Assembly: GCA_014239585.1 (NCBI GenBank)
Contig: JAAZYP010000001.1
Span: forward strand, 111,421 to 175,420
Origin: Nanobdellota archaeon
GTDB taxonomy: Archaea; Nanobdellota; Nanobdellia; UBA10117; ARS21
Length of the DNA: 64,000 bases
Reading direction: 5' to 3'
Below the pieces are notes generated by a model, which was given only the letters and a program-made list of their open reading frames with translations, was not told where the DNA came from and ran no database searches. Both the position numbers and the translations under genes were made by a program. How positions within the stretch are numbered: the stretch's first letter is position 1; the number at the start of each line of letters is the position of its first letter. Shown here piece by piece: positions 15,674-62,520 of the stretch.

Positions 15674-16897
15674 ATGACTAAAATACAGGATAAAATTATT
15701 GATGAGAATCATTTTCGTATTCGAATAGATGCAGATAAACATAGTTTTCCAACCCATAAAAAGGGCGGAAGCGATGCATTGAATGAAATCAAAAAACAAC
15801 TTGGAGCTGAATTTGGAATAGATAATGTTAGTGCTCATCCACACCATGATAAATCTCATTTTAAAATTAAAGTTAGACGAGAAGATATACCTATCATTAA
15901 ACAAATTATTTCTAACACAAACGGATTAGAACTTACTAATCGAACATTTCAATTTCAGGGCGAGTCAATAAAATCAGAATCAGTGATAAAAGTATTATTG
16001 GGACTGGGAGACAAAGTTGAGGCATTAACTGAAAGAAATGATGATTTAATTTATCAACGAGATAAAGTTTTCGAAGACTATGCAAACAATGAGTCAAAAC
16101 TAATTGATTTAGGAGCAGATTATACGCGTGTTGAACAACAAAGAGATGAAGCTCGAGCTGCAGCAAATAATCCTCCGCGAAGACAAATAATTATTGAACC
16201 CAAGAATAAAGATGAAATCCCAAGATTACGGCGCGAAGTTTCTAGTTTAGAAGAAACCATAAAAAATACTAAAAAATTAGATAAAAATTTTATTAAATAT
16301 TTTGAATATGATGAAAAATATGATAATGCAGCAAATGAAGCCACTGCGTTATATAAACGAGCAGGAATTGAAATTCAAATTCGAGATGTTAAATATTTAT
16401 CTTCTACCGAAATACTTAATCAAAATACTAATTTTGGAAGTAGACGTAACTTGGCTAAATCCAAGAATAGTTTAGAAAATAAAATTAGAGATATAGGAAA
16501 TTTTAACCGAGACGAACAAGAAACTGAAATGGGAGATGCCGGAAGAATAAACGAATACGGTGAAGAAATAATTAGTTCTTATACGTTGGGTGAATTAATC
16601 ACTGCGGAAGAAATTCCAGATTTATTTACGCTTGGCACTGACGAATATTTGCCAACTAAAGAGAGAACAGCACAATTGAAATCTGTGTTTGGAAGAAAAG
16701 CAAAGGAAATAAACAAACGATTAACGAGACATTTTACCGCATTAAGGAAACTTAATGAAAAGGATGAACATTTTGACGACATAAAAGAACAAATCCAATA
16801 TCTGGATCGAGTTCAAAAAGCTGTACGAGTGCACGAAAACATGATTAAATATCGTTCTGAACGAGACAGATTTAAATCTCGAATTGAAAATGGATGA
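15674..16897 (+). CDS. hypothetical coiled-coil protein
   Basis: 407-aa ORF with no recognisable catalytic motif. Its stop overlaps the start of the next ORF, so the two are translationally coupled. Confidence 0.5.
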   Translation: MTKIQDKIIDENHFRIRIDADKHSFPTHKKGGSDALNEIKKQLGAEFGIDNVSAHPHHDKSHFKIKVRREDIPIIKQIISNTNGLELTNRTFQFQGESIKSESVIKVLLGLGDKVEALTERNDDLIYQRDKVFEDYANNESKLIDLGADYTRVEQQRDEARAAANNPPRRQIIIEPKNKDEIPRLRREVSSLEETIKNTKKLDKNFIKYFEYDEKYDNAANEATALYKRAGIEIQIRDVKYLSSTEILNQNTNFGSRRNLAKSKNSLENKIRDIGNFNRDEQETEMGDAGRINEYGEEIISSYTLGELITAEEIPDLFTLGTDEYLPTKERTAQLKSVFGRKAKEINKRLTRHFTALRKLNEKDEHFDDIKEQIQYLDRVQKAVRVHENMIKYRSERDRFKSRIENG

Positions 16898-34104: not shown

Positions 34105-35562
34105 TTGAATGGAATTATGATTATGTCAGATCATCCTCTCGGTAAAGCTGTGTTCGAAACCGAAATTCATTACGAAAATTTTCAAGAAGGTATTGAAAAA
34201 TTTTATTTTACGGTTATAGATATAGTTGAAAACAGTTTAGGATATGAAATAAATAAAACTGAAGATCAATTTTTGACATCACCCGGTTCCGCACAATGGC
34301 AAGTTTTTGAGCAACGAAAAGCTGCTCAACAAGAAAAAGCCGCTCAATATCTTGCAAATATTGGTCGAATGACTAAAGATATGATGGTACTTTATCGCGA
34401 ATTAAAGATTCAGGATGAAAGATTGGGATTTTATAAAAAATCAAATGACGGTGATAAAGCTGCAGAAATTTCACTGAAAACACTGTATGTTGATCTTGTT
34501 CAAGGTGGTGCTAAAGATCCATCATCAGTCTTAGGTTTAGCTCAACATGTCGGATTTGTAACATTACCTGATTTATTTTTCAAGTTGGATATCAAAAAAG
34601 AAGAGGATATAGATAAAATTGTGGAAAAGGTTGAAACAAATACTCAAGTTAAGAACGTATTAAAGCGAGAATTATTCAAATATGCGCGGTGGCGGAATAG
34701 AACATACGATGAGCTGACCACACGTAGACATTTCAATATAAAGTATTTGGCTCAACATTTTAATGTCATCAAAATGTATTTAGAATGGGCAAAACCATAT
34801 TTACATAACGTAACTAACTTAACTCAAAATAGTAAAAATGAAAAATCATATCAAATTTTACAAACTTCAGAAAGTTCAATATCCGATATTGAAGTTGTAT
34901 GTAAGCGTAAAAAAATTGATGCTGCAAAGGATTTTGAATATATTTTTCCAATAATTACAGTTACATTTCATCATCGAACTCGTCCAGTTATGGCATATCA
35001 GGGACAGGAATACAGTAAGGGCGCAATTCAATTAGGGCGAATTGAATGTGAAATGAAAGGATTTAATCTAACTGAAACTGAATATAAGAATTATCTTGAT
35101 AAGAAGGAAAAGGATATACTTGAACTCTTATCTTCAGTCGATGAATCGATGAAAGTATTTTTGAATGATTCCAATTCGAAAAAAGATTTTGAGGCATATT
35201 TAGCAGAAGCACGTGAAGAAAACAAAGCTGACAAAGATAAAACCAAAAAATCAGGATCAATTTTAGATATGTTTCGATTCGGAGGCAAGAAAAAATCAAA
35301 AACTAAAGAAAAATCAGATTATACACCATTTATTGATGATTATCGAAAAGAAGATAAAAAAGCAGATAAAATTAAAAAAGAAGTAACTAGTTTTATAATT
35401 TCAAAACTTCGTAAAAAACATAAATTATCGTTAGTTAAATCTGAAAAAATTTTAAAAAAATATAATGAAGACAAGGCATTATCTAAAAATTCAGTTAAAA
35501 GTAATTTAGAAGTTCTATATGATATTATAAAAATAAATTATGGAATGATTCGAAATGAGTAG
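34105..35562 (+). CDS. hypothetical protein, first gene of 4-gene plus-strand operon
   Basis: 485 aa, no recognisable motif; stop overlaps the next ORF by 8 nt. Confidence 0.55.
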   Translation: MNGIMIMSDHPLGKAVFETEIHYENFQEGIEKFYFTVIDIVENSLGYEINKTEDQFLTSPGSAQWQVFEQRKAAQQEKAAQYLANIGRMTKDMMVLYRELKIQDERLGFYKKSNDGDKAAEISLKTLYVDLVQGGAKDPSSVLGLAQHVGFVTLPDLFFKLDIKKEEDIDKIVEKVETNTQVKNVLKRELFKYARWRNRTYDELTTRRHFNIKYLAQHFNVIKMYLEWAKPYLHNVTNLTQNSKNEKSYQILQTSESSISDIEVVCKRKKIDAAKDFEYIFPIITVTFHHRTRPVMAYQGQEYSKGAIQLGRIECEMKGFNLTETEYKNYLDKKEKDILELLSSVDESMKVFLNDSNSKKDFEAYLAEAREENKADKDKTKKSGSILDMFRFGGKKKSKTKEKSDYTPFIDDYRKEDKKADKIKKEVTSFIISKLRKKHKLSLVKSEKILKKYNEDKALSKNSVKSNLEVLYDIIKINYGMIRNE

Positions 35563-37916: not shown

Positions 37917-38726
37917 TTGATTATGCGGTTTAGAGTTAATAAACGTAAGGTAAATTTTGAGTCAAAATATCCTAAACAAGACAGAGATTTAGCAAAGAAA
38001 TTTAGCAAATTAATATATAGTGAATTAGGCGATTTTATTAGCGCAGTGGTGTTATTTGGTTCTGCAGCAAAAGGAACATCAAAAAAGGAAAGTGATGTTG
38101 ATATTCTAATTATCATCGATGATGTACACATCGATTTATCAAAAGAAATAGTCGAAACATACAGAATTTTAATACAAAAAGCAGTTGCAAAAGTAAATCC
38201 AAAAAGACTTCATGTTCAATCATTAAAATTAACTGCATTTTGGGAATATACTCGTGCAGGAGATCCAGTAGCGATTAATATACTTCGAGATGGAATTGCA
38301 TTTATTGACAGAGGATTTTTTGAACCACTCCAGTTATTATTGTTGAATGGCCGGATCAGACCATCTCAGGAATCTGTTCAAACTTACATAAATATGGCAT
38401 TTTCTAGTTTAAATCGCAGTAAATCTGGAATAGATAGTGCAATTGTGGATCTATATTGGGCATGTATTGATTCAGCACATGCTGCATTAATGAGTCGAGG
38501 AGAAGTTCCAGTTTCACCAGCTCAAGTTGCAGATGAATTAGATAAAAAATTAGTTAAGAACAAACTCTTGGAAAAAAGATATGTTGATATTATGAGTCAT
38601 ATGTATGAATTATCCAAAAAACTTTTACGACGAGATATATCGAATCTATCAGGAAAAGATTACGATAAATATCTAAAATATACTGATGATTTTGTCAGTC
38701 GAATGACTAAAATAATCAAGTCTTAA
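37917..38726 (+). CDS. KNTase-like nucleotidyltransferase (Pol-beta superfamily NTase + helical HEPN-like C-domain)
   Basis: FGSAAKGTSKKESDVDILIIIDD = hG[GS]x(n)[DE]h[DE]h NTase signature. The C-terminal helical domain has R-x6-H (RYVDIMSH); 31 bp downstream of the TIM-barrel gene, same strand. Confidence 0.65.
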   Translation: MIMRFRVNKRKVNFESKYPKQDRDLAKKFSKLIYSELGDFISAVVLFGSAAKGTSKKESDVDILIIIDDVHIDLSKEIVETYRILIQKAVAKVNPKRLHVQSLKLTAFWEYTRAGDPVAINILRDGIAFIDRGFFEPLQLLLLNGRIRPSQESVQTYINMAFSSLNRSKSGIDSAIVDLYWACIDSAHAALMSRGEVPVSPAQVADELDKKLVKNKLLEKRYVDIMSHMYELSKKLLRRDISNLSGKDYDKYLKYTDDFVSRMTKIIKS

Positions 38727-39292
38727 AGACCGTGATTCAATAAGATCGTATAGGGTGTATTTGCCAATGCAGCTAAATCTGCCCGTAAATTATATTGTCT
38801 ATGTGCTCTATCTGTTAGAACACTTAATTGATTAGCAATTTGATCTCTTTCATCGGGTGTCGCAGTAGTATGATATTCATTAATATGATCTTGAACTGTA
38901 AGTAACATATCGGATCGATTTAAATTTAAAATTTGATCTGTGTTAATTCTTTGAGCTAAACCTTTTCCGTTCGATAATGCAAATGAAGCTATTCTTTCTC
39001 GTCTTGTTCGAGTATCATCAAATAATTGATCTGTACCAACTTGATACATTTGACCAATCATCGCTCGCATCGTGGATTCAACATGTGCATCTACTGCACC
39101 GTAGTCTACACCAAATCTATTATTCGCAATTCGCGCATTAAGCGTATCGATTGTAGTTGAAACATGATTGTGTGTTCTGGGCGCTACAGTTGTGAAATCT
39201 CTGATTAATCTTGTGAAATGATCATCCAACGTAGTTGTATCTTCATCTCTAATTCTTTGTGTGGTATCCAACATAAAGTTTGGTAGTGCCAT
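38723..39292 (-). CDS. hypothetical lysine-free protein (1 Lys, 0 Cys, 0 Trp in 189 aa)
   Basis: Uninterrupted 189-codon ORF with host-like AT-rich codons but composition dominated by T/R/D/N/A/L/H/Q. Convergent with the upstream NTase (4-nt overlap), divergent from the downstream NTase. Confidence 0.5.
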   Translation of the reverse strand: MALPNFMLDTTQRIRDEDTTTLDDHFTRLIRDFTTVAPRTHNHVSTTIDTLNARIANNRFGVDYGAVDAHVESTMRAMIGQMYQVGTDQLFDDTRTRRERIASFALSNGKGLAQRINTDQILNLNRSDMLLTVQDHINEYHTTATPDERDQIANQLSVLTDRAHRQYNLRADLAALANTPYTILLNHGL

Positions 39293-56454: not shown

Positions 56455-56712
56455 ATGTATCCGGAATATCTGTTTGAAGGTGCTACGCTCAATATGCTAA
56501 TCGTTTATCTGATAATTGGACTATCTATTCTATTATTCAAGGCTTTAGCGCTTTGGCATTCAGCAAGACACTCACAGAAATGGTGGTTTGCTGCAGTTTT
56601 AATCTTAAACACCTTAGGAATTTTACCTTTAGTATATCTATTTTTCTTTAGACCGGATAGAAAAAAGACGAATATCTTTGGACGAAAATTGAAAAGAAAA
56701 ATAAAGAAATAA
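56455..56712 (+). CDS. small two-TM membrane protein
   Basis: 85-aa ORF; its 3' end overlaps the convergent PAP2 ORF by 65 nt, so one of the two may be spurious. Confidence 0.3.
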   Translation: MYPEYLFEGATLNMLIVYLIIGLSILLFKALALWHSARHSQKWWFAAVLILNTLGILPLVYLFFFRPDRKKTNIFGRKLKRKIKK

Positions 56713-57025
56713 TTGCACCGAAAATAATATCTACCCATCTATGCCTTCTTAATTTAAATCTCGATATTGCAATTAGTCCTGACCACAAATAAATAACTAT
56801 ATCTCCGGACATCATTGCCATCAATAAGCTTAGCGCAGTATGATTGCTCGGGAAGGATTCATCATCAGATCCGTCTGGCCTTTTTGATTTGACCACATAT
56901 TTTATACATTCATTCATTACCGATAATATAACTCCTGCAAAAAATAATGGAAAAGCTGATGTACCAAGTTTTATGAATAAATAAGGAAAAATTAATATTA
57001 TTGAATCAGAAATTGGTCTCCACAT
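56648..57025 (-). CDS. minimal PAP2-family phosphatase (membrane)
   Basis: Three PAP2 motifs in order: KSKRPDG (KxxxxxxRP), PSNH (PSGH-like), SRFKLRRHRWVD (SRx5Hx3D); 125 aa. Confidence 0.55.
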   Translation of the reverse strand: MWRPISDSIILIFPYLFIKLGTSAFPLFFAGVILSVMNECIKYVVKSKRPDGSDDESFPSNHTALSLLMAMMSGDIVIYLWSGLIAISRFKLRRHRWVDIIFGAIISLFFFSIFVQRYSSFFYPV

Positions 57026-57098
57026 GCTTAGAGTATACTCTTTCTTTTTTTATGCTTAACGTTAACTTTAAAAGTCATATAATAATTCACATTCTATT

Positions 57099-57182
57099 GT
57101 AGGCGTTCCAGAGCGGTCAAATGGGATGGACTTAAGATCCATTGGCTTAGTGCCTTCGCAGGTTCGAATCCTGCCGCCTACA
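57099..57182 (+). tRNA. tRNA-Leu (anticodon TAA), long variable arm
   Basis: Acceptor GUAGGCG/CGCCUAC, anticodon stem AUGGA/UCCAU with loop CUUAAGA, variable arm about 14 nt, T-arm GCAGG-UUCGAAU-CCUGC. Confidence 0.85.
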
Positions 57183-57184
57183 TA
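57171..57184. repeat. attL-like copy of direct repeat CTGCCGCCTACATA (tRNA-Leu 3' end)
   Basis: Exact 14-mer repeated at 59708..59721; the match extends to 18/20 bp. Confidence 0.5.
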
Positions 57185-57283
57185 CCTTACTTAGTTTTAG
57201 TTTAGTAGTATATTAAATGACATATGGTTATAAATTCGGAGAGAAATAATCATATGAATTTATTGGGTCGTTTGGAAAGATAA

Positions 57284-57619
57284 ATGAAAGACCATTATAA
57301 CATGAATAAAAGGGAGCAATCCCTTATCGATTATTGGAATAGCCAAGCCAAGAAAGGCAATAAAAATGCAAAGGACGTATTAGATTTTAGAGACTATCTA
57401 AAGGAAAGGGAATCTCGTATTGTTGGACTATCTAGAAGAGTTTGTTTGATGTTGATAGTGTCAAGACCTATATCAACGAGAGACCATCAGGTTCAGCCAA
57501 GTCCGAACATATGCTGGGTGTTAATGGGAGGGAAGATGCTAAAAAATAATATTATTTCCTTCTTGCGAGGCTATTTGAGGTATTTGAGAGGTAAATTAAA
57601 TGAAATTAGAAGGAGATAA
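57284..57619 (+). CDS. hypothetical protein (contains a GC-rich patch)
   Basis: 111-aa ORF; the central GC-rich segment could alternatively be non-coding. Confidence 0.3.
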   Translation: MKDHYNMNKREQSLIDYWNSQAKKGNKNAKDVLDFRDYLKERESRIVGLSRRVCLMLIVSRPISTRDHQVQPSPNICWVLMGGKMLKNNIISFLRGYLRYLRGKLNEIRRR

Positions 57620-57752
57620 GTGTGCTATTAGTAAATCAGTTAGAATAATTTCTCCTGATGGACATCTAATTAATGAAACAGAGGTTTCAATCATCGGTGA
57701 TACCTTAGAAGAATGTTATCGAAAGTATTTGCTAGTGAAAAAGAATGACTAA
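57600..57752 (+). CDS. small hypothetical protein, 50 aa
   Basis: MKLEGDKCAISKSVRIISPDGHLINETEVSIIGDTLEECYRKYLLVKKND; not in the track. Confidence 0.25.
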   Translation: MKLEGDKCAISKSVRIISPDGHLINETEVSIIGDTLEECYRKYLLVKKND

Positions 57753-57808
57753 TTTATTAGATTAGGTTTATTTTTTTGACTTTACTCTTCTTCGTCGTTT
57801 AGGGCGTT

Positions 57809-57883
57809 TTATTTTCCACAATCGCAATTATCGCATTTACAATCCGAACATTTACAATCTTTATTATTACAAGTAGTTTCCAT
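57809..57883 (-). CDS. metallothionein-like Cys-rich mini-ORF, 24 aa (7 Cys)
   Basis: METTCNNKDCKCSDCKCDNCDCGK, read from the reverse complement. Confidence 0.3.
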   Translation of the reverse strand: METTCNNKDCKCSDCKCDNCDCGK

Positions 57884-58086
57884 ACTTAATTAATGGAGAA
57901 ATCCATTTATATGATCTTCTAAAAGTTCTGGACGAGTTTGCCAGAAACCTCTTCCTCTTGGACTACCTTTCCGACCACCAATCCGACCACCTTTACTTTT
58001 TCCCTTATTTTTTTGACTAATTTATTAAAATAAAATGGGAGGTCATTTCTGACCCCATAATTAATTCTGCTTTGCCCACAGAGCTA

Positions 58087-58106
58087 ATTCAAAACCTTGA
58101 TAAATA
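58087..58106 (+). promoter_or_regulatory. repeated promoter motif ATTCAAAACCTTGATAAATA (copy 1), 19 bp upstream of ATG 58126
   Basis: BRE/TATA-like GATAAATA; spacing implies a leaderless transcript. Confidence 0.45.
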
Positions 58107-58125
58107 TTAGAGTAGTAATTTTGTT

Positions 58126-58581
58126 ATGAGTAAGACAATGTATCATGGATCTCCAAAAAGATTAACTAAATTATCTTCAGGAAAAAGAGGACTATTTCTT
58201 TCCCCATTAAAAGGAATTGCTTCAATTTTTGCAATAGATGAAGTAAAGGAATTTTCAAAAAGCAAAACTTTCAGCTTTAATATGAATTATGATGAATGGA
58301 CGCTTCCTGATTCAAAATTAAAAAATTCCCTAAAAAATATTCATATTCGTCACAATGTCCCAAACACTAAAAAAATTTCAGGAACTTCAACAGGCTATAT
58401 TTATACTATTGACGCAACTAATCTGAAACTTGAAGACTTTAAAGATAATCCAAATTCAAAACGCGAATTAGTTTATTTTGGACCGAAGATTGATTATGTT
58501 TCTATCGAGAAGATAAAAATAAATTGGACTGCTGAGTATTCGAAAGATCAGGAAAATAAATATGGATGTGGTAGATTCTAG
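58126..58581 (+). CDS. hypothetical protein
   Basis: 151-aa ORF driven by motif copy 1. Confidence 0.45.
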   Translation: MSKTMYHGSPKRLTKLSSGKRGLFLSPLKGIASIFAIDEVKEFSKSKTFSFNMNYDEWTLPDSKLKNSLKNIHIRHNVPNTKKISGTSTGYIYTIDATNLKLEDFKDNPNSKRELVYFGPKIDYVSIEKIKINWTAEYSKDQENKYGCGRF

Positions 58582-58600
58582 TCTTAGGATACTAATCTAA

Positions 58601-58684
58601 TAATCACTTAAACATCTCTAATTCAAAACCTTCGATAAAAAAGTAATCACTTAAACATCGCTAATTCAAAACATTGATAAACAG
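58601..58684 (+). repeat. tandem duplication (about 43 bp x2) TAATCACTTAAACATC[T/G]CTAATTCAAAAC[C/A]TT[C]GATAAA containing promoter motif copies 2 and 3
   Basis: 58601-58643 and 58644-58684; copy 3 (58664..58683) sits 19 bp upstream of ATG 58703. A partial third copy TAATCACTTAAACATCTCT lies at 59087..59105. Confidence 0.5.
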
Positions 58685-58702
58685 TTAATTTTTAGATTTA
58701 TT

Positions 58703-59089
58703 ATGGGTTACAGAGGCGAATTATGGGTTAACGATACGCAAGTTAGTGCCGACTGGAAGGTTAACGTAGGAAGAAATTTTATGATATTGGATAAAATGAT
58801 AAAATTAGGAATACTCTCTAAAAAGGAATTTGATAAATTTGAACATACTCCTGAAGAACAATTTAACGCTTCGATTGAGCTTACAAAAAAGGACACAGCT
58901 AAATTGATAGACGATATTTTAGAACCTATTGTAAAAAAATTAAAAGAGCAGAGAACTGCTGAAGATTTAGATTTAAAAAAGTGGGAATATGAAACAACTG
59001 ACTTAGCTTATTTTACTCGTATAATTCGTCTACTCCGAACGGCAATGAAACGTAAAGGAAAAATCAATCTTTTTTTTTGTCACGGTTAA
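58703..59089 (+). CDS. hypothetical protein
   Basis: 128-aa ORF flanked on both sides by TAATCACTTAAACATC repeats. Confidence 0.45.
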   Translation: MGYRGELWVNDTQVSADWKVNVGRNFMILDKMIKLGILSKKEFDKFEHTPEEQFNASIELTKKDTAKLIDDILEPIVKKLKEQRTAEDLDLKKWEYETTDLAYFTRIIRLLRTAMKRKGKINLFFCHG

Positions 59090-59131
59090 TCACTTAAACA
59101 TCTCTCCAAAAAGGATAGTTTAATTAGAAAA

Positions 59132-59437
59132 TTATTTTAAAGTTATCGCCCAACCACTTTTAGCAGCATAGTTTCCTAACTCTCGACTTGGTCCATGAGA
59201 TCCTAAAAATGAAGATAAAGTCCAGTTATGTAGGTTTGTCATAATTTCCTTGTATCGTGCATTATTAATTTCAAACATCACTGGTGCACCCAGAGATTCT
59301 ACAATTACGTAATCTTTGTTTCCAAGGTCAATGATCCCACCATATGCAGAATTAAATCTAACTGGGTAAGACCAACCGCCTCTTCGTTTATTGGCATTGG
59401 CTTTCTCTTGAGTCCAAGTTTTAAATTCATTTGCCAT
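59132..59437 (-). CDS. hypothetical protein
   Basis: 101-aa ORF. Confidence 0.45.
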   Translation of the reverse strand: MANEFKTWTQEKANANKRRGGWSYPVRFNSAYGGIIDLGNKDYVIVESLGAPVMFEINNARYKEIMTNLHNWTLSSFLGSHGPSRELGNYAAKSGWAITLK

Positions 59438-59458
59438 TTTACTAAAAGTTCATTCATA

Positions 59459-59560
59459 CTATAAAATATTATCTCTCCATTTAGTTTTTTCAGTTAGATA
59501 TTTTCCTAAGACATAACCCATTATTGCTGACAAAATTATCAAAAAGATCGTAAACTCCAT
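59459..59560 (-). CDS. single-TM micro-protein, 33 aa
   Basis: MEFTIFLIILSAIMGYVLGKYLTEKTKWRDNIL, directly upstream of and co-oriented with 59132..59437. Confidence 0.25.
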   Translation of the reverse strand: MEFTIFLIILSAIMGYVLGKYLTEKTKWRDNIL

Positions 59561-59618
59561 GTTTTTAATATATGCTTGAACTTAAAATAAGTTATGTATT
59601 CGGAAACTTTGTAAGAAG

Positions 59619-59646
59619 ATAAACTATAAATATAGATATAGTTTAT
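59619..59646. promoter_or_regulatory. inverted repeat ATAAACTATA-(8)-TATAGTTTAT
   Basis: 10-bp perfect arms, about 60 bp upstream of the att-like repeat and of the minus-strand micro-ORF. Confidence 0.3.
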
Positions 59647-59707
59647 GATATAATACGACTGAATAAACACCTAATATACTTTGATACAAAAACTAAGTCA
59701 GGCAATT

Positions 59708-59721
59708 CTGCCGCCTACATA
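59708..59721. repeat. attR-like copy of CTGCCGCCTACATA
   Basis: Matches the tRNA-Leu 3' end at 57171..57184. Confidence 0.5.
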
Positions 59722-59723
59722 TC

Positions 59724-59781
59724 ACTTTTAGGAAAAGTGATGTCAAAAACTCAAACTTTTAGGAAAAGTGATGTCAAAAAC
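59724..59781. promoter_or_regulatory. two 27-bp direct repeats ACTTTTAGGAAAAGTGATGTCAAAAAC, each containing palindrome TCACTTTT-agg-AAAAGTGA (putative paired operators)
   Basis: Copies at 59724-59750 and 59755-59781, immediately upstream of the gene at 59811. Confidence 0.5.
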
Positions 59782-59810
59782 ATTTTATTCTAGAATTGAT
59801 TTCTTTCTGT

Positions 59811-60401
59811 ATGAATTCCGAAATTATTGTACTTGCAGGCGCATCGCTTGGAGCAATTGCGATTTCTGCAATAAGTGCCGGTTTAGTTAAAAAATATGAT
59901 CCGAATCAAATTTTATATTGGCATTTGAATCGAAAAGGTGATGTAGAGGGATATGAAAATGCAGCCAGAGAATCAAGAATATTATTATCAGGTAAACATG
60001 ATCGATACGGTAAAGGCATGGTTACTGGAATTTTGGCGAGAGGAACATTAAAAGAAATTAAGGATAAATTAACTGAATATATTCATCGTGAAAGGTTGAT
60101 TTTAAGAGTAAAACGTTCTGGAGAAGATTCAATTCAGATAAATATTATTGATTCACGAATAAGTAGATTAAATGAAAATGAATTAAGTTCTGCTGAACAA
60201 GAAAGATATATTCGAGTTTATCAGCAAGTAATAACTGAAAGTCAAGAAGTATTACATGGATTACAGTATGATGCTGAAGTAGGTAATGTATCAAGTTATC
60301 ATTCTCGAGTACGACGAATCATTCGTGAAGGTATAATTTCGGGAAAATCTGACCACGAAATTATTTTATTTTGTAGAAAAACACAATTTGCTAATTATTA
60401 G
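59811..60401 (+). CDS. hypothetical protein with N-terminal TM helix
   Basis: ATG 59811 (MNSEIIVLAG...); the track ORF begins at an upstream TTG at 59796. Confidence 0.5.
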   Translation: MNSEIIVLAGASLGAIAISAISAGLVKKYDPNQILYWHLNRKGDVEGYENAARESRILLSGKHDRYGKGMVTGILARGTLKEIKDKLTEYIHRERLILRVKRSGEDSIQINIIDSRISRLNENELSSAEQERYIRVYQQVITESQEVLHGLQYDAEVGNVSSYHSRVRRIIREGIISGKSDHEIILFCRKTQFANY

Positions 60402-60443
60402 TCACTTAGTTAGCTTTTTAAATAAAAATAAAAACAGCGAATT

Positions 60444-60608
60444 ATGGTAGAACAAAAAGACAATCACTTTGTATGTAACTTGTGTAAATACAAATATCCT
60501 GCAAAAGAACACGCAGAAACATGTGAAGATAATTGCCGATCTGGAACTTTTGATCCGGAACTTGAAAGTTGGGGGATACCCCCTGAACAAGAGCAAGCTT
60601 TAAATTAA
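60444..60608 (+). CDS. small zinc-ribbon protein, 54 aa
   Basis: MVEQKDNHFVCNLCKYKYPAKEHAETCEDNCRSG...; CxxC...CxxxC. Confidence 0.35.
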   Translation: MVEQKDNHFVCNLCKYKYPAKEHAETCEDNCRSGTFDPELESWGIPPEQEQALN

Positions 60609-60627
60609 AATTGCTCAATTATTAACC

Positions 60628-60900
60628 ATGAAAATAAAAAAGAAGACTCTAATTTACATACTTTTAGTTATGGCAATTGGATTTTTGGCATCAAATTATG
60701 AACCCGCTCCTGAAGTTACAAGCATAATAATAACTGCTGAAACTGAGATTATTGACAATAAAGTCTTACAACGATATCAAGTCGGAAATAATGAAATCTG
60801 TCAAACTGATTGTAAACTTTACTCAACGCAAAATGATGTTGAATATGTTACCGCAATCGTCAGAGTCTGGGGACAATGTAATTGTCGGGTGATTGGATGA
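60628..60900 (+). CDS. small secreted/membrane-anchored Cys-containing protein
   Basis: N-terminal hydrophobic signal/anchor, then CQTDC...CNC. Confidence 0.4.
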   Translation: MKIKKKTLIYILLVMAIGFLASNYEPAPEVTSIIITAETEIIDNKVLQRYQVGNNEICQTDCKLYSTQNDVEYVTAIVRVWGQCNCRVIG

Positions 60901-61301
60901 GAAAACCGAAATCAATGTCTGAATTAATTTATTTTACTCGTAGAAATGATGAATTTGGTCAATTGAAAGTCTACGTTTTCAAAGAAAAATGTTCTGAATG
61001 TGGCAAAGTCAATATGGGTAAACCGATAAATCCAAAAACTGGTAAAGTAAAATCTCGATCAAAGGAATATGTTTGTTCTGAATGCGAACATAGTGTCGAA
61101 AAGGAAGAATACGAGGATTCTTTGACTGCATCAATTGAATATACTTGTCCTGAAGGACATTCTGGTGAAATTGAAATTCCTTTTGAACGGAAAAGACTTC
61201 CTATTCGAAATTTGAAAACTGGAAAAAACAAATACAAACCTGGAGTTAAATTCAATTGTCCTACTTGCGATTTTGAAATTAAAATTGTCAAACTTAAGTA
61301 A
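60897..61301 (+). CDS. multi-CxxC zinc-ribbon protein
   Basis: Four CxxC pairs (CSECG, CSECE, CPEGH, CPTCD); ATG 60897 is in frame with track ORF 60882..61301. Confidence 0.5.
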   Translation: MRKPKSMSELIYFTRRNDEFGQLKVYVFKEKCSECGKVNMGKPINPKTGKVKSRSKEYVCSECEHSVEKEEYEDSLTASIEYTCPEGHSGEIEIPFERKRLPIRNLKTGKNKYKPGVKFNCPTCDFEIKIVKLK

Positions 61302-61336: not shown

Positions 61337-61447
61337 GCCTCGGTAGCTCAGTTTGGTAGAGCGCTGCATTGGTAACGCAAAGAATCCTTCGCGGATTGGC
61401 TTGCGCCAATAATGCAGAGGCCGCGAGTTCAAATCCCGCCTGGGGCA
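61337..61447 (+). tRNA. tRNA-Thr (anticodon GGT) with 37-nt intron at canonical 37/38 position
   Basis: Acceptor GCCUCGG/CUGGGGC (two G-U pairs), D-arm AGCUCAGUUUGGUAGAGC, anticodon stem CUGCA...UGCAG interrupted by intron 61375..61411, T-loop UUCAAAU. Confidence 0.7.
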
Positions 61448-61448
61448 T
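61438..61448. repeat. GCCTGGGGCAT (tRNA-Thr 3' end), repeated exactly at 62492..62502
   Basis: 11-bp GC-rich direct repeat bracketing a 1.05-kb segment that carries only the FkbM methyltransferase gene. Confidence 0.4.
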
Positions 61449-61532
61449 CCATCGAACAGTACACATTACTAACCTCTTTTAAGTTTTTACAAACTTAGAA
61501 GCATACTTGGTTTTAGTCTTACCTAAAAAAAA

Positions 61533-62429
61533 ATGAAAAAGTTTGTTTGTTTGTTTGAGGATTTTTCGAAAAAATATTTTTCGAAAAAGATAATACTCCT
61601 TCTCGGGTTAATTCCTCGAACTTATTTTAAAATTAATAAACTTATTTCAGATTATAAATTAAGCGAAATATATTCTCCAATATATCAAAAAATTGAGTAT
61701 GGTGGTAAATTTTTTTACATATTATTAGATAAAACTAATGGCGGAGTGGATAGAGATATCTTACTGAATGGAGTTTATGAAGCGGATATTATGAAAATTT
61801 TAGATGAAAATTTGAAAGTAGGAATGAATTTTGTAGATATTGGATCAAATATTGGGTATCATTCCCTGTTTGTTTCTAAAATTATTGGTCCGAAAGGGAA
61901 AATTTTTTCATTTGAGCCAATTAAACGAGTCTATAATCAGTTCGAAAAATCTATTTCGAAAAATAAATTTAAAAATATATACGCATATAATTTTGCCATA
62001 GGGACTAGAAATAAAATATCAAAAATATATATCAATGAAAATAATGTTGGGGGGTCATCACTCATTAACAAAACTAAAACTTTTGAATCTATTAAAACTA
62101 AAACTCCGGATAAACTATTATCTGACCATAAAATTGATTTTATAAAAATTGATGTTGAAGGTTATGAATATTATGTGTTGAAAAGTTTGGAAAAAATAAT
62201 TACTGCCGATTTACCCAACATGTTGATAGAATATAGTCCGATTTTTTATGATAAAATCAACATAGATATGAAGAAGAATCTTATTAAATTATTAAAAAAA
62301 TGGAATTATGTTTTATTTGATGTTGATGCAGATAAATTAATCTCTGATTCAGAAAAGTTTGTTGTTAATTTTAAACGAAATCAGACAAATTTATTTTGTA
62401 TGATAGAGCCTAGAGAAAAGCAAAAGTAA
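61533..62429 (+). CDS. FkbM-family SAM-dependent methyltransferase
   Basis: FVDIGSNIGYHSLF (FkbM motif I), 298 aa. Confidence 0.6.
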   Translation: MKKFVCLFEDFSKKYFSKKIILLLGLIPRTYFKINKLISDYKLSEIYSPIYQKIEYGGKFFYILLDKTNGGVDRDILLNGVYEADIMKILDENLKVGMNFVDIGSNIGYHSLFVSKIIGPKGKIFSFEPIKRVYNQFEKSISKNKFKNIYAYNFAIGTRNKISKIYINENNVGGSSLINKTKTFESIKTKTPDKLLSDHKIDFIKIDVEGYEYYVLKSLEKIITADLPNMLIEYSPIFYDKINIDMKKNLIKLLKKWNYVLFDVDADKLISDSEKFVVNFKRNQTNLFCMIEPREKQK

Positions 62430-62491
62430 TAGTTACTACGTAAGACTCACCAAACATATGGTAGTGATGTGTACTCTTTGAGGCATGCTTG

Positions 62492-62520
62492 CCTGGGGCA
62501 TTCAAAACCTTGATAAATAC
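62492..62520 (+). promoter_or_regulatory. att-like repeat GCCTGGGGCAT immediately followed by promoter motif copy 4 ATTCAAAACCTTGATAAATA
   Basis: Motif copy 4 at 62501..62520, 18 bp upstream of ATG 62539. Confidence 0.45.

Follow-up and report, generated by a model that had tools for sequence, protein, structure and literature searches.

An insert of 2,537 bp at the 3' end of a tRNA-Leu gene is a precise presence/absence polymorphism within one archaeal population. It holds four or five small gene cassettes with promoters of their own and encodes no recombinase, and we consider it somewhat probable that positions 57185-59721 of the window (the whole 64-kb stretch of DNA that was analysed) form an integrative cassette element that is non-autonomous and relies on a site-specific recombinase acting in trans. 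To our knowledge, the mobile elements of DPANN archaea have barely been described. Surveys of integrated elements usually take an integrase or Cas1 gene as their starting point and so are blind to elements without a recombinase. The locus offers a natural filled/empty polymorphism, conserved ends, copies in other species, and a 28-nt marker that can be searched for; how archaea with tiny genomes exchange accessory genes, and which enzyme moves recombinase-less elements, are questions that can be tested in existing metagenomes. The features are listed in Table 1.

Table 1. Features of the tRNA-Leu insert and of a second, smaller insert at tRNA-Thr, in window positions
Feature	Position	Strand	Remarks
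tRNA-Leu(TAA), integration target	57099..57182	+	ARAGORN; Rfam 55 bits; attB in its 3' end
Left direct repeat (attL core)	57171..57184	+	Last 12 nt of tRNA-Leu plus 2 nt
Left terminal inverted repeat CCTTACTTAGTTTTAGTTTAGTAGTATATTA	57185..57215	+	31 nt, 81% complementary to right copy
111-aa ORF, possibly frame-shifted	57284..57619	+	No family match; segment absent from L019 variant
50-aa ORF	57600..57752	+	No family match; mostly absent from L019 variant
3'-end remnant of '...DEEE*' gene	57771..57800	-	100% shared with L019
Cys-rich mini-ORF (METTCNNKDCKCSDCKCDNCDCGK)	57809..57883	-	Cassette shared with L041 and L065
Fragment without start codon, encoding a GGRIGGRKG repeat	57893..58018	-	
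Promoter half of repeat module (AATTCAAAACCTTGATAAATA)	58084..58106	+	Upstream of 151-aa gene
151-aa gene	58126..58581	+	Widespread domain, often inside giant multidomain proteins
Two tandem 28-nt repeat + promoter modules	58601..58683	+	58601-58639 and 58644-58683; cassette boundary
128-aa gene	58703..59089	+	Internally deleted copy of 198-aa protein
Third 28-nt repeat copy, truncated	59087..59105	+	Downstream cassette boundary
101-aa gene	59132..59437	-	Rare family, three other clusters
33-aa ORF	59459..59560	-	Upstream of 101-aa gene
Right terminal inverted repeat	59672..59702	-	Followed by CAATT (59703-59707), then direct repeat
Right direct repeat (attR core)	59708..59721	+	
Second mini-element, ~1.05 kb, at tRNA-Thr	61337..62501	+	
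tRNA-Thr(GGT), intron-containing	61337-61447	+	3' end GCCTGGGGCAT repeated at 62491-62501
FkbM-type methyltransferase gene in tRNA-Thr mini-element	61533-62429		

The 14-mer CTGCCGCCTACATA, which begins in the T-stem of tRNA-Leu and has 12 of its 14 nt within the tRNA, occurs exactly twice in the window (57171-57184 and 59708-59721); allowing one mismatch adds no further copy, and two matches were seen in none of 100 shuffles. The original prediction of a 14-bp repeat of the tRNA-Leu 3' end at the distal position was confirmed, as an exact pair that is unique in the window. The longer match that it claimed, 18 of 20 bp, came to 17 of 20 (CGAATCCTGCC... versus GCAATTCTGCC...), and the five extra bases carry little weight alone. 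A metagenome contig from the same population and the same study (L003, BUSC20-1) is an exact empty site, reading tRNA-Leu...CTGCCGCCTACATA|TCGCTTTTAGG..., with one copy of the 14-mer and exactly 2,537 bp missing. Its alignments cover window positions 56480-57184 at 99.9% identity and 59704-60905 at 98.9%, with 18 nt common to both. The filled left junction is present on L001 and L004, while L002 stops exactly at 57184. Between the empty and filled contigs, flanks are 99-100% identical; judging by the right flank (98.9%), filled and empty alleles belong to slightly different strains. The tRNA-Leu gene is intact in both. This comparison, which had been named as a check, restores a single tRNA-Leu 3' end, and the repeats and the empty allele together bear out an insertion at that end bounded by direct repeats. 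In sister species (L011-L020), the order of PAP2 gene, tRNA-Leu, and 196-aa gene was observed without the insert. The exact 22-mer of the tRNA-Leu 3' end had zero matches in the GTDB species representatives. A G/A polymorphism in tRNA-Leu was considered as an excision scar and rejected, a compensatory stem change being the simpler explanation.

Just inside the direct repeats lies a pair of imperfect terminal inverted repeats; in 20,000 random pairs or shuffles, their score was never reached. The left copy abuts the direct repeat, and the right one ends 5 nt short of it. The ends of the element occur once in the window. Elsewhere, the flank of a tRNA-Thr on contig L019 matches positions 57189-57220 at 100% identity, and ACTTAGTTT ends are also found after tRNA-Leu on L039, L049, and L065. 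The spacer between the tRNA and a conserved ACTTAG is 4-6 nt long and variable among copies (CCTT, TAATTG, GTATAG, GTAGTG). On the right, the arm and that of a diverged 'element 2' (L066-L073, L077) are homologous. A terminal palindrome (TCACTTTTAGGAAAAGTGA) that had been counted as part of the element is chromosomal flank, found at the empty site too; the palindrome region, outside the element, includes a 27-nt tandem repeat at 59724-59781. The terminal inverted repeats and the cassette/repeat structure had been overlooked.

In the insert, gene cassettes, each with a promoter, form a mosaic. The cassettes are separated by a 28-nt repeat, AATCACTTAAACATCTCTAATTCAAAAC, which has no dyad symmetry and is followed by a TATA-like box and, ~22 nt further on, an ATG. 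This repeat is exact in 41 marine contigs, often less than 100 nt from a tRNA 3' end, and both it and the attL junction are absent from IMG/VR. Within the window, the repeat module is found only inside the element and beside the tRNA-Thr insert. DNA homology to four related contigs (L022, L023, L024, L041) begins exactly at 58644, positions 57750-57924 are 97-99% identical to L041 and L065, and one cassette recurs in different arrays on related contigs. Such exchange exactly at identical 28-nt repeats would be feasible by ordinary homologous recombination, and the orf1 segment is flanked by a 9-nt microhomology, ATTAAATGA; both observations suit an origin without dedicated mobility, in which the DNA was acquired through homology or microhomology and the 14-nt repeat is incidental. 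We regard that origin, already disfavoured, as highly improbable. Beyond the two junction copies, the 14-mer has no further match in 64 kb; the junctions are exact, other elements and other species use this tRNA position too, and the inverted repeats at both ends would be left unexplained.

The ORFs of the bracketed 2.5 kb had been described as small ORFans and Cys-rich mini-ORFs, yet the 151-, 128-, and 101-aa genes have homologues. The 151-aa protein matched 159 cluster representatives at E<=1e-3, and fusion partners of its domain include GNAT, LigD, ligase, SNF2, and NUDIX domains. Its AF2 model (pLDDT 94.5) had no significant match in the PDB (Foldseek) or in BFVD, where the matches were weak (E>=0.01) and a few were named ART-PolyVal or polyvalent protein. 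Assignment as an H-Y-E ADP-ribosyltransferase was set aside as unproven, given that the His varies within the family alignment and that Foldseek against the PDB came back empty. The 128-aa gene has lost ~70 aa relative to the 198-aa protein, a form present in at least four other genomic contexts. A homologue of the 101-aa protein adjoins tRNA-Met in another archaeon (L007), where an att-like repeat was looked for and none was found. The 33-aa ORF looks like a single transmembrane helix, and gene calling on contig L006 included the 50-aa ORF. The GGRIGGRKG fragment, with 30-nt matches in related loci, appears to be what is left of a member of the repeat-rich '...DEEE' protein family encoded there. 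Searches of the element's proteins against IMG/VR and a phage collection, and of its DNA against plasmids, found nothing.

Related inserts were observed both at this tRNA and at others. In two other species, the tRNA-Leu site is filled by element 2, with a direct repeat of at least 11 nt, and both species also have empty alleles (L066-L073 versus L071; L077 versus L074 and L076). In a further species, a deletion variant of the tRNA-Leu element adjoins tRNA-Thr (L019), at 97-100% identity over three segments; the protein flanking this variant is only 71% identical to its counterpart, which points to recent horizontal movement. Inserts at tRNA-Thr have direct repeats of 10-11 nt, and the mini-element there in the window has 20-nt terminal inverted repeats of its own and the promoter half of the repeat module at 62500-62519. 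Three species have recombinase-less mini-inserts at tRNA-Leu; at tRNA-Thr such inserts come in three forms, and others lie beside tRNAs for Asp, Asn, Glu, and Thr. The cargo of related arrays includes methyltransferases and GNAT acetyltransferases.

The original prediction had offered two histories, a decayed provirus remnant or a cargo element mobilised in trans, and the second fits better because of the same-site element 2, the L019 variant at tRNA-Thr, the similar mini-inserts, and the lack of a recombinase among the ORFs scanned on related contigs. Under the first, a larger virus or plasmid encoding an integrase would have entered tRNA-Leu; subsequent deletion of its integrase and replication genes would have left an immobile relic like a bacterial CIME (cis-mobilizable element), with the empty allele as the ancestral state in other strains. 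There is debris that would suit this history (the ~70-aa loss in the 128-aa gene, the start-less fragment, the '...DEEE*' remnant, the possibly frame-shifted ORF), the L019 variant differs through deletions, and CIMEs, in which attL and attR at the 3' end of a tRNA or gene persist without genes for integration and transfer, are a recognised decay outcome (PMC5704250). We nevertheless think a relic quite unlikely. Decay would have had to repeat itself independently at each of the tRNA sites listed above, and no full-length parent was found in the 41 repeat-bearing contigs (134.5 kb in total). Segments that are 97-100% identical are shared by species with ~75% identical flanking DNA, which speaks for the small form itself having been transferred recently. 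The CIMEs of Firmicutes resemble the element in keeping attL and attR while integration and transfer genes are missing. They are, however, decay products of ICEs or IMEs that move by joining an incoming ICE, whereas the element has no known parent and its small form is found in several species at two different tRNAs.

The absence of an integrase from the element, as predicted, was upheld by Pfam, PHROGs, and PADLOC, all without a match, and a six-frame reading gave no long ORF. Neither the element, nor 40 ORFs of the window, nor 30 singly scanned ORFs of related contigs yielded an integrase, Cas1, or transposase, and the same window and related-contig ORFs gave no PolB. A set scan of 101 ORFs from related contigs showed no recombinase among the families listed, the 25 commonest of 91, so that a lone match could have escaped notice. 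Altogether, the ORFs scanned from ~60 related contigs included no recombinase, these contigs being short (about 1-14 kb), so that linked recombinase genes could lie outside them. No tandem partner of the element was found in the related contigs, nor any circular junction or virus or plasmid bearing attP; matches in IMG/VR to the tRNA end and to attP-like sequence were chance matches in high-GC phage genes.

Inverted repeats immediately inside direct repeats are more typical of transposons, which speaks against an integrase. As a non-autonomous transposon, the element would owe its 14-nt repeat to target-site duplication at a staggered cut, and its 31-nt inverted repeats would bind a transposase acting in trans, either a casposase (Cas1) that targets tRNA ends or another transposase. 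We judge this unlikely. The highly significant inverted repeats lie where a transposon would have them, the tRNA-Thr mini-element shares that layout, and the presence of one element end on two tRNA 3' ends would be natural if the repeat derives from the target; an integrase model, having one left end joined to two tRNA 3' ends, needs a swap of the attP core. A length of 14 bp is also that of the target-site duplication of Methanosarcina mazei casposons, likewise at tRNA-Leu (PMC4779613; PMC6977970). There, however, the duplication takes in the last 4 bp of the tRNA and 10 bp downstream (PMC6977970), while the repeat here spans 12 nt of the tRNA. The 5-nt gap at the right end only, the variable 4-6 nt before ACTTAG where transposon termini are normally most conserved, the scan results for Cas1, PolB, and transposase, and the absence of the Nitrosopumilus family-1 casposon signals (target-site duplication ATTGATAAAGAGT; inverted repeat ending TTCTA) also weigh against a transposon. 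Repeat lengths spread over 10-14 nt across the family (14 here, at least 11 in element 2, 10-11 at tRNA-Thr), and such variation is easier to reconcile with homology cores than with a fixed staggered cut. A casposon encodes a Cas1-family casposase, usually together with a family-B DNA polymerase. The element resembles family-2 casposons (Methanosarcina mazei, Aciduliprofundum boonei) in its inverted repeats, its ~14-bp direct repeat, its site at a tRNA 3' end, which is that of tRNA-Leu in M. mazei, and its presence/absence polymorphism among strains. The element differs from them in lacking Cas1 and PolB, in its 2.5-kb size, in the 12 rather than 4 tRNA nt within the repeat, in the 5-nt offset of one inverted repeat, and in the variable repeat length of its family.

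The reading we prefer, integration by a recombinase acting in trans, would run through a circular form carrying an attP, with a 14-bp core of the same sequence as the tRNA 3' end. The core would lie between the inverted arms (...AAAACTAAGTCAGG-CAATT-core-CCTTACTTAGTTTT...), and the expected circular junction is …GTCAGGCAATT-CTGCCGCCTACATA-CCTTACTTAG…. A recombinase from a co-resident virus, plasmid, or larger island, or from the host, would join this core with the tRNA, regenerating an intact gene and leaving attL and attR, and cassettes would be swapped between elements at the conserved 28-nt repeat and promoter module. A tyrosine integrase is the likeliest enzyme, its class being assigned by analogy, as the recombinase search was negative everywhere. 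Directly observed are the exact insertion with its empty allele, the direct and inverted repeats, the mosaic of cassettes, and the reuse of site and ends in other species and at another tRNA; inferred are the circular intermediate and what kind of recombinase acts and where it comes from. The element may still be mobile today, and its insertion at tRNA-Leu may have been integrase-mediated, as originally proposed. The position of the direct repeat inside the tRNA (12 of 14 nt, from the T-stem) matches characterised archaeal tyrosine-integrase att cores. In SNJ2, the 14-bp att core is the 3' part of tRNA-Met (PMC5861418), and the att sites of Thaumarchaea, 8 to about 25 bp long with a median of 17 bp, lie nearly all at tRNA 3' ends (PMC6563490). 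Cryptic integrated elements (CIEs) of archaea with tyrosine integrases share with the element a short att core formed by the 3'-distal part of a tRNA, the regenerated tRNA, and empty sites in relatives. With its 2.5 kb, the element is also near the smallest described one in size. Those CIEs, even the thaumarchaeal NitUzo-E2 (2.6 kb), encode their own integrase, however, whereas the tRNA-Leu element encodes none, and the element further differs from thaumarchaeal CIEs and SNJ2 in its DPANN host, its 31-nt inverted arms, and its internal boundaries of 28-nt repeat and promoter.

The cassette arrays also invite comparison with other mobile gene systems. Integrons consist of an IntI integrase, an attI site, and attC sites with dyad symmetry, and their cassettes are usually promoterless. 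Like integron arrays, the element and its relatives have single small accessory genes between conserved repeats, cassettes that are reused, and cargo such as methyltransferases or GNAT acetyltransferases; unlike in integrons, there is no IntI, the 28-nt repeat shows no attC-like dyad, each cassette has a promoter, and the arrays are anchored at tRNA 3' ends. A MITE or other miniature non-autonomous transposon is short and non-coding, has inverted repeats and a target-site duplication, and is repeated many times in a genome, whereas the element is 2.5 kb long and coding and its ends occur once in the 64-kb window. An IMEX (integrative mobile element exploiting Xer) such as CTXphi integrates at dif through the host Xer recombinase and has no recombinase of its own. 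The element shares that lack, but it sits at a tRNA and no dif-like site was identified at it, and the link is conceptual only. A broader possibility, which we hold to be unlikely, is that these loci represent a previously undescribed gene-cassette system of marine Woesearchaeota, integron-like in function and built from unrelated parts, with promoter-bearing cassettes and the 28-nt repeat, small recombinase-less islands with inverted terminal arms, and a dedicated host or helper recombinase inserting them at the 3' ends of Leu, Thr, Asp, Asn, and Glu tRNAs. Were the recombinase host-encoded or of a new type, this would be a new tRNA-anchored route of gene-cassette traffic.

Finally, marker genes in the window identify the host as a marine Woesearchaeota-like DPANN archaeon rather than a thaumarchaeon. 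Both rpoA and rpoB are split, and the nearest named relative, the only genome match, is a 'Candidatus Woesearchaeota' MAG. A thaumarchaeal host or a family-1 casposon was rejected on these two grounds and on the absence of the target-site duplication and inverted-repeat motifs of N. koreensis. The same split genes and MAG match fit poorly with the SSV-type framing of the original prediction.

With the neighbouring PAP2 protein as query, we retrieved five short metagenome contigs, all from one study. One contig of this population (L003, study BUSC20-1) carries an empty site, ...TTCGAATCCTGCCGCCTACATA|TCGCTTTTAGGAAAAGTGATG..., and aligns to window positions 56480–57184 (99.9%) and 59704–60905 (98.9%), with 18 nt of the contig common to both alignments. 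The filled left junction is present in two other contigs of the same population (L001 and L004), while L002 ends exactly at window position 57184, and L006, from another sample, is a piece from inside the insert. Given that L003 is empty and L001 and L004 are filled, this is a precise 2,537-bp presence/absence polymorphism within one natural population. The comparison with strains or metagenomes lacking the insert, proposed in the original prediction, therefore returned a single-copy empty site. In the sister species, the gene order is PAP2, tRNA-Leu, and genes for proteins of 196, 54, and 90 aa, and PAP2 and the 196-aa gene are only ~290 nt apart; this flanking 196-aa protein is ~72% identical to that of the window.

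The features of the insert and its surroundings are collected in the table. The direct repeat was found, as predicted, at the tRNA end and again at the right boundary, and at just these two sites in the 64-kb window, even when one mismatch was allowed; two matches were seen in 0 of 100 shuffles. It comprises the final 12 nt of the tRNA (4 nt of the T-stem, 7 nt of the acceptor strand, and the discriminator), followed by 2 nt outside. An extension of the match to 18 of 20 bp did not hold up, as we counted 17 of 20, which adds little. In 20,000 random window pairs or shuffles, no score was as high as that of the 31-nt inverted repeat. Its left arm touches the direct repeat, and CAATT stands between its right arm and the other copy. 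Among the window, L011–L020, L071, and L074, one acceptor-stem pair of tRNA-Leu was variable, both from species to species and within a species: it is C-G in the window, and relatives have T-A or T·G. Potential target sites therefore show a one-base difference in the att core (CTGCCGCC vs CTGCCACC).

Coordinates of the insert, its repeats and genes, and a neighbouring mini-element in the window
Feature	Position	Strand	Remark
tRNA-Leu(TAA)	57099–57182		ARAGORN and Rfam
Direct repeat, 14-mer	57171–57184 and 59708–59721		CTGCCGCCTACATA
Insert	57185–59721		2,537 bp
Terminal inverted repeat, 31 nt	57185–57215 and 59672–59702		imperfect, 81% complementary; directly inside direct repeats
Two small ORFs	57284–57752	plus
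Cys-rich mini-ORF and two gene fragments	57771–58018	minus
151-aa gene	58126–58581
128-aa gene			in insert
101-aa gene and 33-aa ORF		minus
Repeat/module sites	58084–58106, 58601–58683, 59087–59105, 62500–62519
Second mini-element	61337–62519		tRNA-Thr(GGT) 3' end GCCTGGGGCAT again at 62491–62501

A palindrome had also been assigned to the element. This palindrome and a 27-nt tandem repeat (59724–59781) turned out to be chromosomal, as they are found at the empty site too. The flank directly past tRNA-Leu (window 59721–59781; empty sites L003 and L011) holds the hairpin-forming palindrome TCACTTTTAGGAAAAGTGA within the 27-nt tandem duplication, and the sister species has a different palindrome at the same position. 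The palindrome could act as a terminator of the tRNA or belong to attB.

Related arrangements were observed in other lineages and at a second tRNA. In another lineage (L039, L049, and L065), 6 variable nt come after tRNA-Leu(TAA), then ACTTAGTTT... and an inverted copy of the repeat, an arrangement similar to those at the two ends of the window element. A diverged element with a homologous right arm, 'element 2', occupies the same tRNA-Leu site in two other species. In the species marked by protein P0017, seven contigs are filled (L066–L070, L072, and L073; ...GATATACAAACGAAGCTTACCAATCA|TGCCACCTACA|CTCTACC...), and in L071 the same flank is joined to an intact tRNA. In the species marked by protein P0009, L077 has the same right end as the filled contigs, while L074 and L076 are empty. 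The right arm of 'element 2' (...CGAAGCTTACCAATCA|TGCCACCTACA) can be aligned with that of the window element. Contig breaks are frequent here, in keeping with a population that is heterogeneous at the site. Inside 'element 2', a 79-aa partial ORF (L072 3–239, minus strand; MSNRKGKVYLAKTPLYPFDLKIGFTEKRNP...) resembles by eye the N-terminus of a putative GIY-YIG or T5orf172-type nuclease; it had no match in PADLOC.

At tRNA-Thr(GGT) of a further species, the 96 nt that follow the gene (L019 9687–9782) consist of TAATTG and three segments matching window positions 57189–57220 (100%), 57595–57632 (97%), and 57771–57800 (100%). This copy is the window element with deletions, next to a different tRNA and in a different species. 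A flanking protein of that species is 71% identical to the window's, against 97–100% for the segments, which points to the element having moved between species recently and to tRNA-Thr as a second target. The tRNA-Thr mini-element of the window holds only one gene between its repeats, for an FkbM-type methyltransferase (61533–62429), together with a 20-nt inverted repeat of its own, the score of which was reached by 5 of 5,000 random pairs. At the same tRNA-Thr, the insert of L011–L018 is another one, 0.6 kb long and with GCCTGGGGCA as its repeat, and the site is empty in L066–L075. An immobile, decayed relic would fit the gene debris in the window element, but small forms recur across sites and species and 97–100% identical segments are common to diverged hosts, which makes this explanation improbable.

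We lean towards insertion by site-specific recombination with a recombinase supplied in trans, because the repeat lies inside the 3' part of the tRNA, its length is variable (10–14 nt across the family), and the bases closest to the junction vary while the arms farther in are conserved. The 14-bp core of SNJ2 (PMC5861418) and the repeats of thaumarchaeal integrated elements (PMC6563490) also lie inside the tRNA 3' part, and the 14-bp duplication of the M. mazei casposon takes in just the last 4 bp of tRNA-Leu (PMC6977970). A transposon or casposon-like mechanism would suit inverted repeats that sit tight against the direct repeats and a single element end at two different tRNAs. The window element is like casposons in its inverted repeats and repeat length but has neither Cas1 nor PolB, and we consider this mechanism rather unlikely. 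Under site-specific recombination, the circle junction is predicted to read ...AAAACTAAGTCAGGCAATT-CTGCCGCCTACATA-CCTTACTTAGTTTTAG..., and the attP arm of the element would be ACTTAGTTTT....

The element was correctly described as having no recognisable integrase: no ORF of the insert matched Pfam, PHROGs, or PADLOC, and none of its reading frames could hold a recombinase. Integrase, Cas1, and transposase domains were absent from 40 window ORFs and from 30 singly scanned ORFs of repeat-bearing contigs, nor were they among the families listed for a 101-ORF set, the 25 commonest of 91. The recognisable cargo of these contigs consists of methyltransferases, GNAT, GrpB, and a DUF2268 protease, alongside many unknowns. 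Searching IMG/VR with attP-like strings gave no relevant matches. In att geometry, the window element follows archaeal tRNA-integrating elements but lacks the encoded integrase that defines them; functionally, it resembles CIMEs or integrative elements of the satellite type.

Within the insert, we observed a cassette organisation. The motif TAATCACTTAAACATCTCT has three copies in the window, each within the insert, and forms a ~40-nt module with the following AATTCAAAAC[C/A]TTGATAAA, with a TATA-like box ~22 nt upstream of an ATG. The 28-nt repeat, AATCACTTAAACATCTCTAATTCAAAAC, also seen across loci L022–L065, usually has a TATA-like box and then an ATG downstream. In four contigs (L022, L023, L024, and L041) with mutually unrelated flanks, DNA homology (96.6–99.2%) sets in precisely with the module at 58644 and stops precisely at the copy that follows (59087–59105). 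The cassette at 58644 encodes a 198-aa protein in other contexts, ~70 internal residues of which are missing from the window copy. A Cys-rich cassette is common to the window, L041, and L065 (97–99%), and the 101-aa gene to the window and L008 (87%). The exact 23-nt repeat core led to 41 marine contigs, its 42 copies having 34 distinct downstream sequences, and in many contigs the repeat lies ~100 nt or less from a tRNA 3' end (Asp, Asn, Glu, Thr, or Leu). Profile matches to the module were confined to the insert and position 62500 in the window, to the stretch directly past tRNA-Thr in L011, and to that directly past tRNA-Asp in L026; therefore, we rejected the module as a general host promoter. 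Integron arrays have a similar cassette organisation, but the window element lacks IntI and attC. In the literature searched, such elements were not described for DPANN archaea. We consider it rather improbable that tRNA-anchored cassettes bounded by repeats form a categorically new system.

The family of the 151-aa protein, with 159 cluster representatives, is that of a widespread domain, which is often found within multidomain proteins of 400–2,400 aa with GNAT, LigD, ligase, SNF2, or NUDIX domains. There is no Pfam model for the domain. Its AF2 model (pLDDT 94.5) had no significant structural match in PDB or BFVD, and a likeness to ADP-ribosyltransferases is a weak lead. A recurrent cargo family of 190–284 aa, without a Pfam match, is marked by GRKGG(L/R)IGGRKG repeats and, at the C-terminus, by the conserved ...AY..NKD.L.DEEE. 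It was located in L026 (10878–11597), L038, L045, L049, L054, L055, and L067; the window element has only fragments of such a gene (57771–58018).

The window is chromosomal, with genes for eRF1, TFB, S7, RNA polymerase, and aminoacyl-tRNA synthetases. Three sizeable ORFs of its conserved chromosomal part, of 407, 485, and 189 aa (15674–16897, 34105–35562, and 38723–39292), had no Pfam match. The host is a low-GC DPANN archaeon, since rpoA and rpoB are each split, one tRNA has an intron, a search of species representatives with the flanking gene hit only a 'Candidatus Woesearchaeota archaeon' MAG, and the related contigs come from marine metagenomes. The split rpoA and rpoB and the Woesearchaeota match led us to reject a thaumarchaeon as host. 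The intron-containing tRNA-Thr (61337–61447) was found by Rfam and missed by ARAGORN, and its counterpart in L066–L075 is intron-less.
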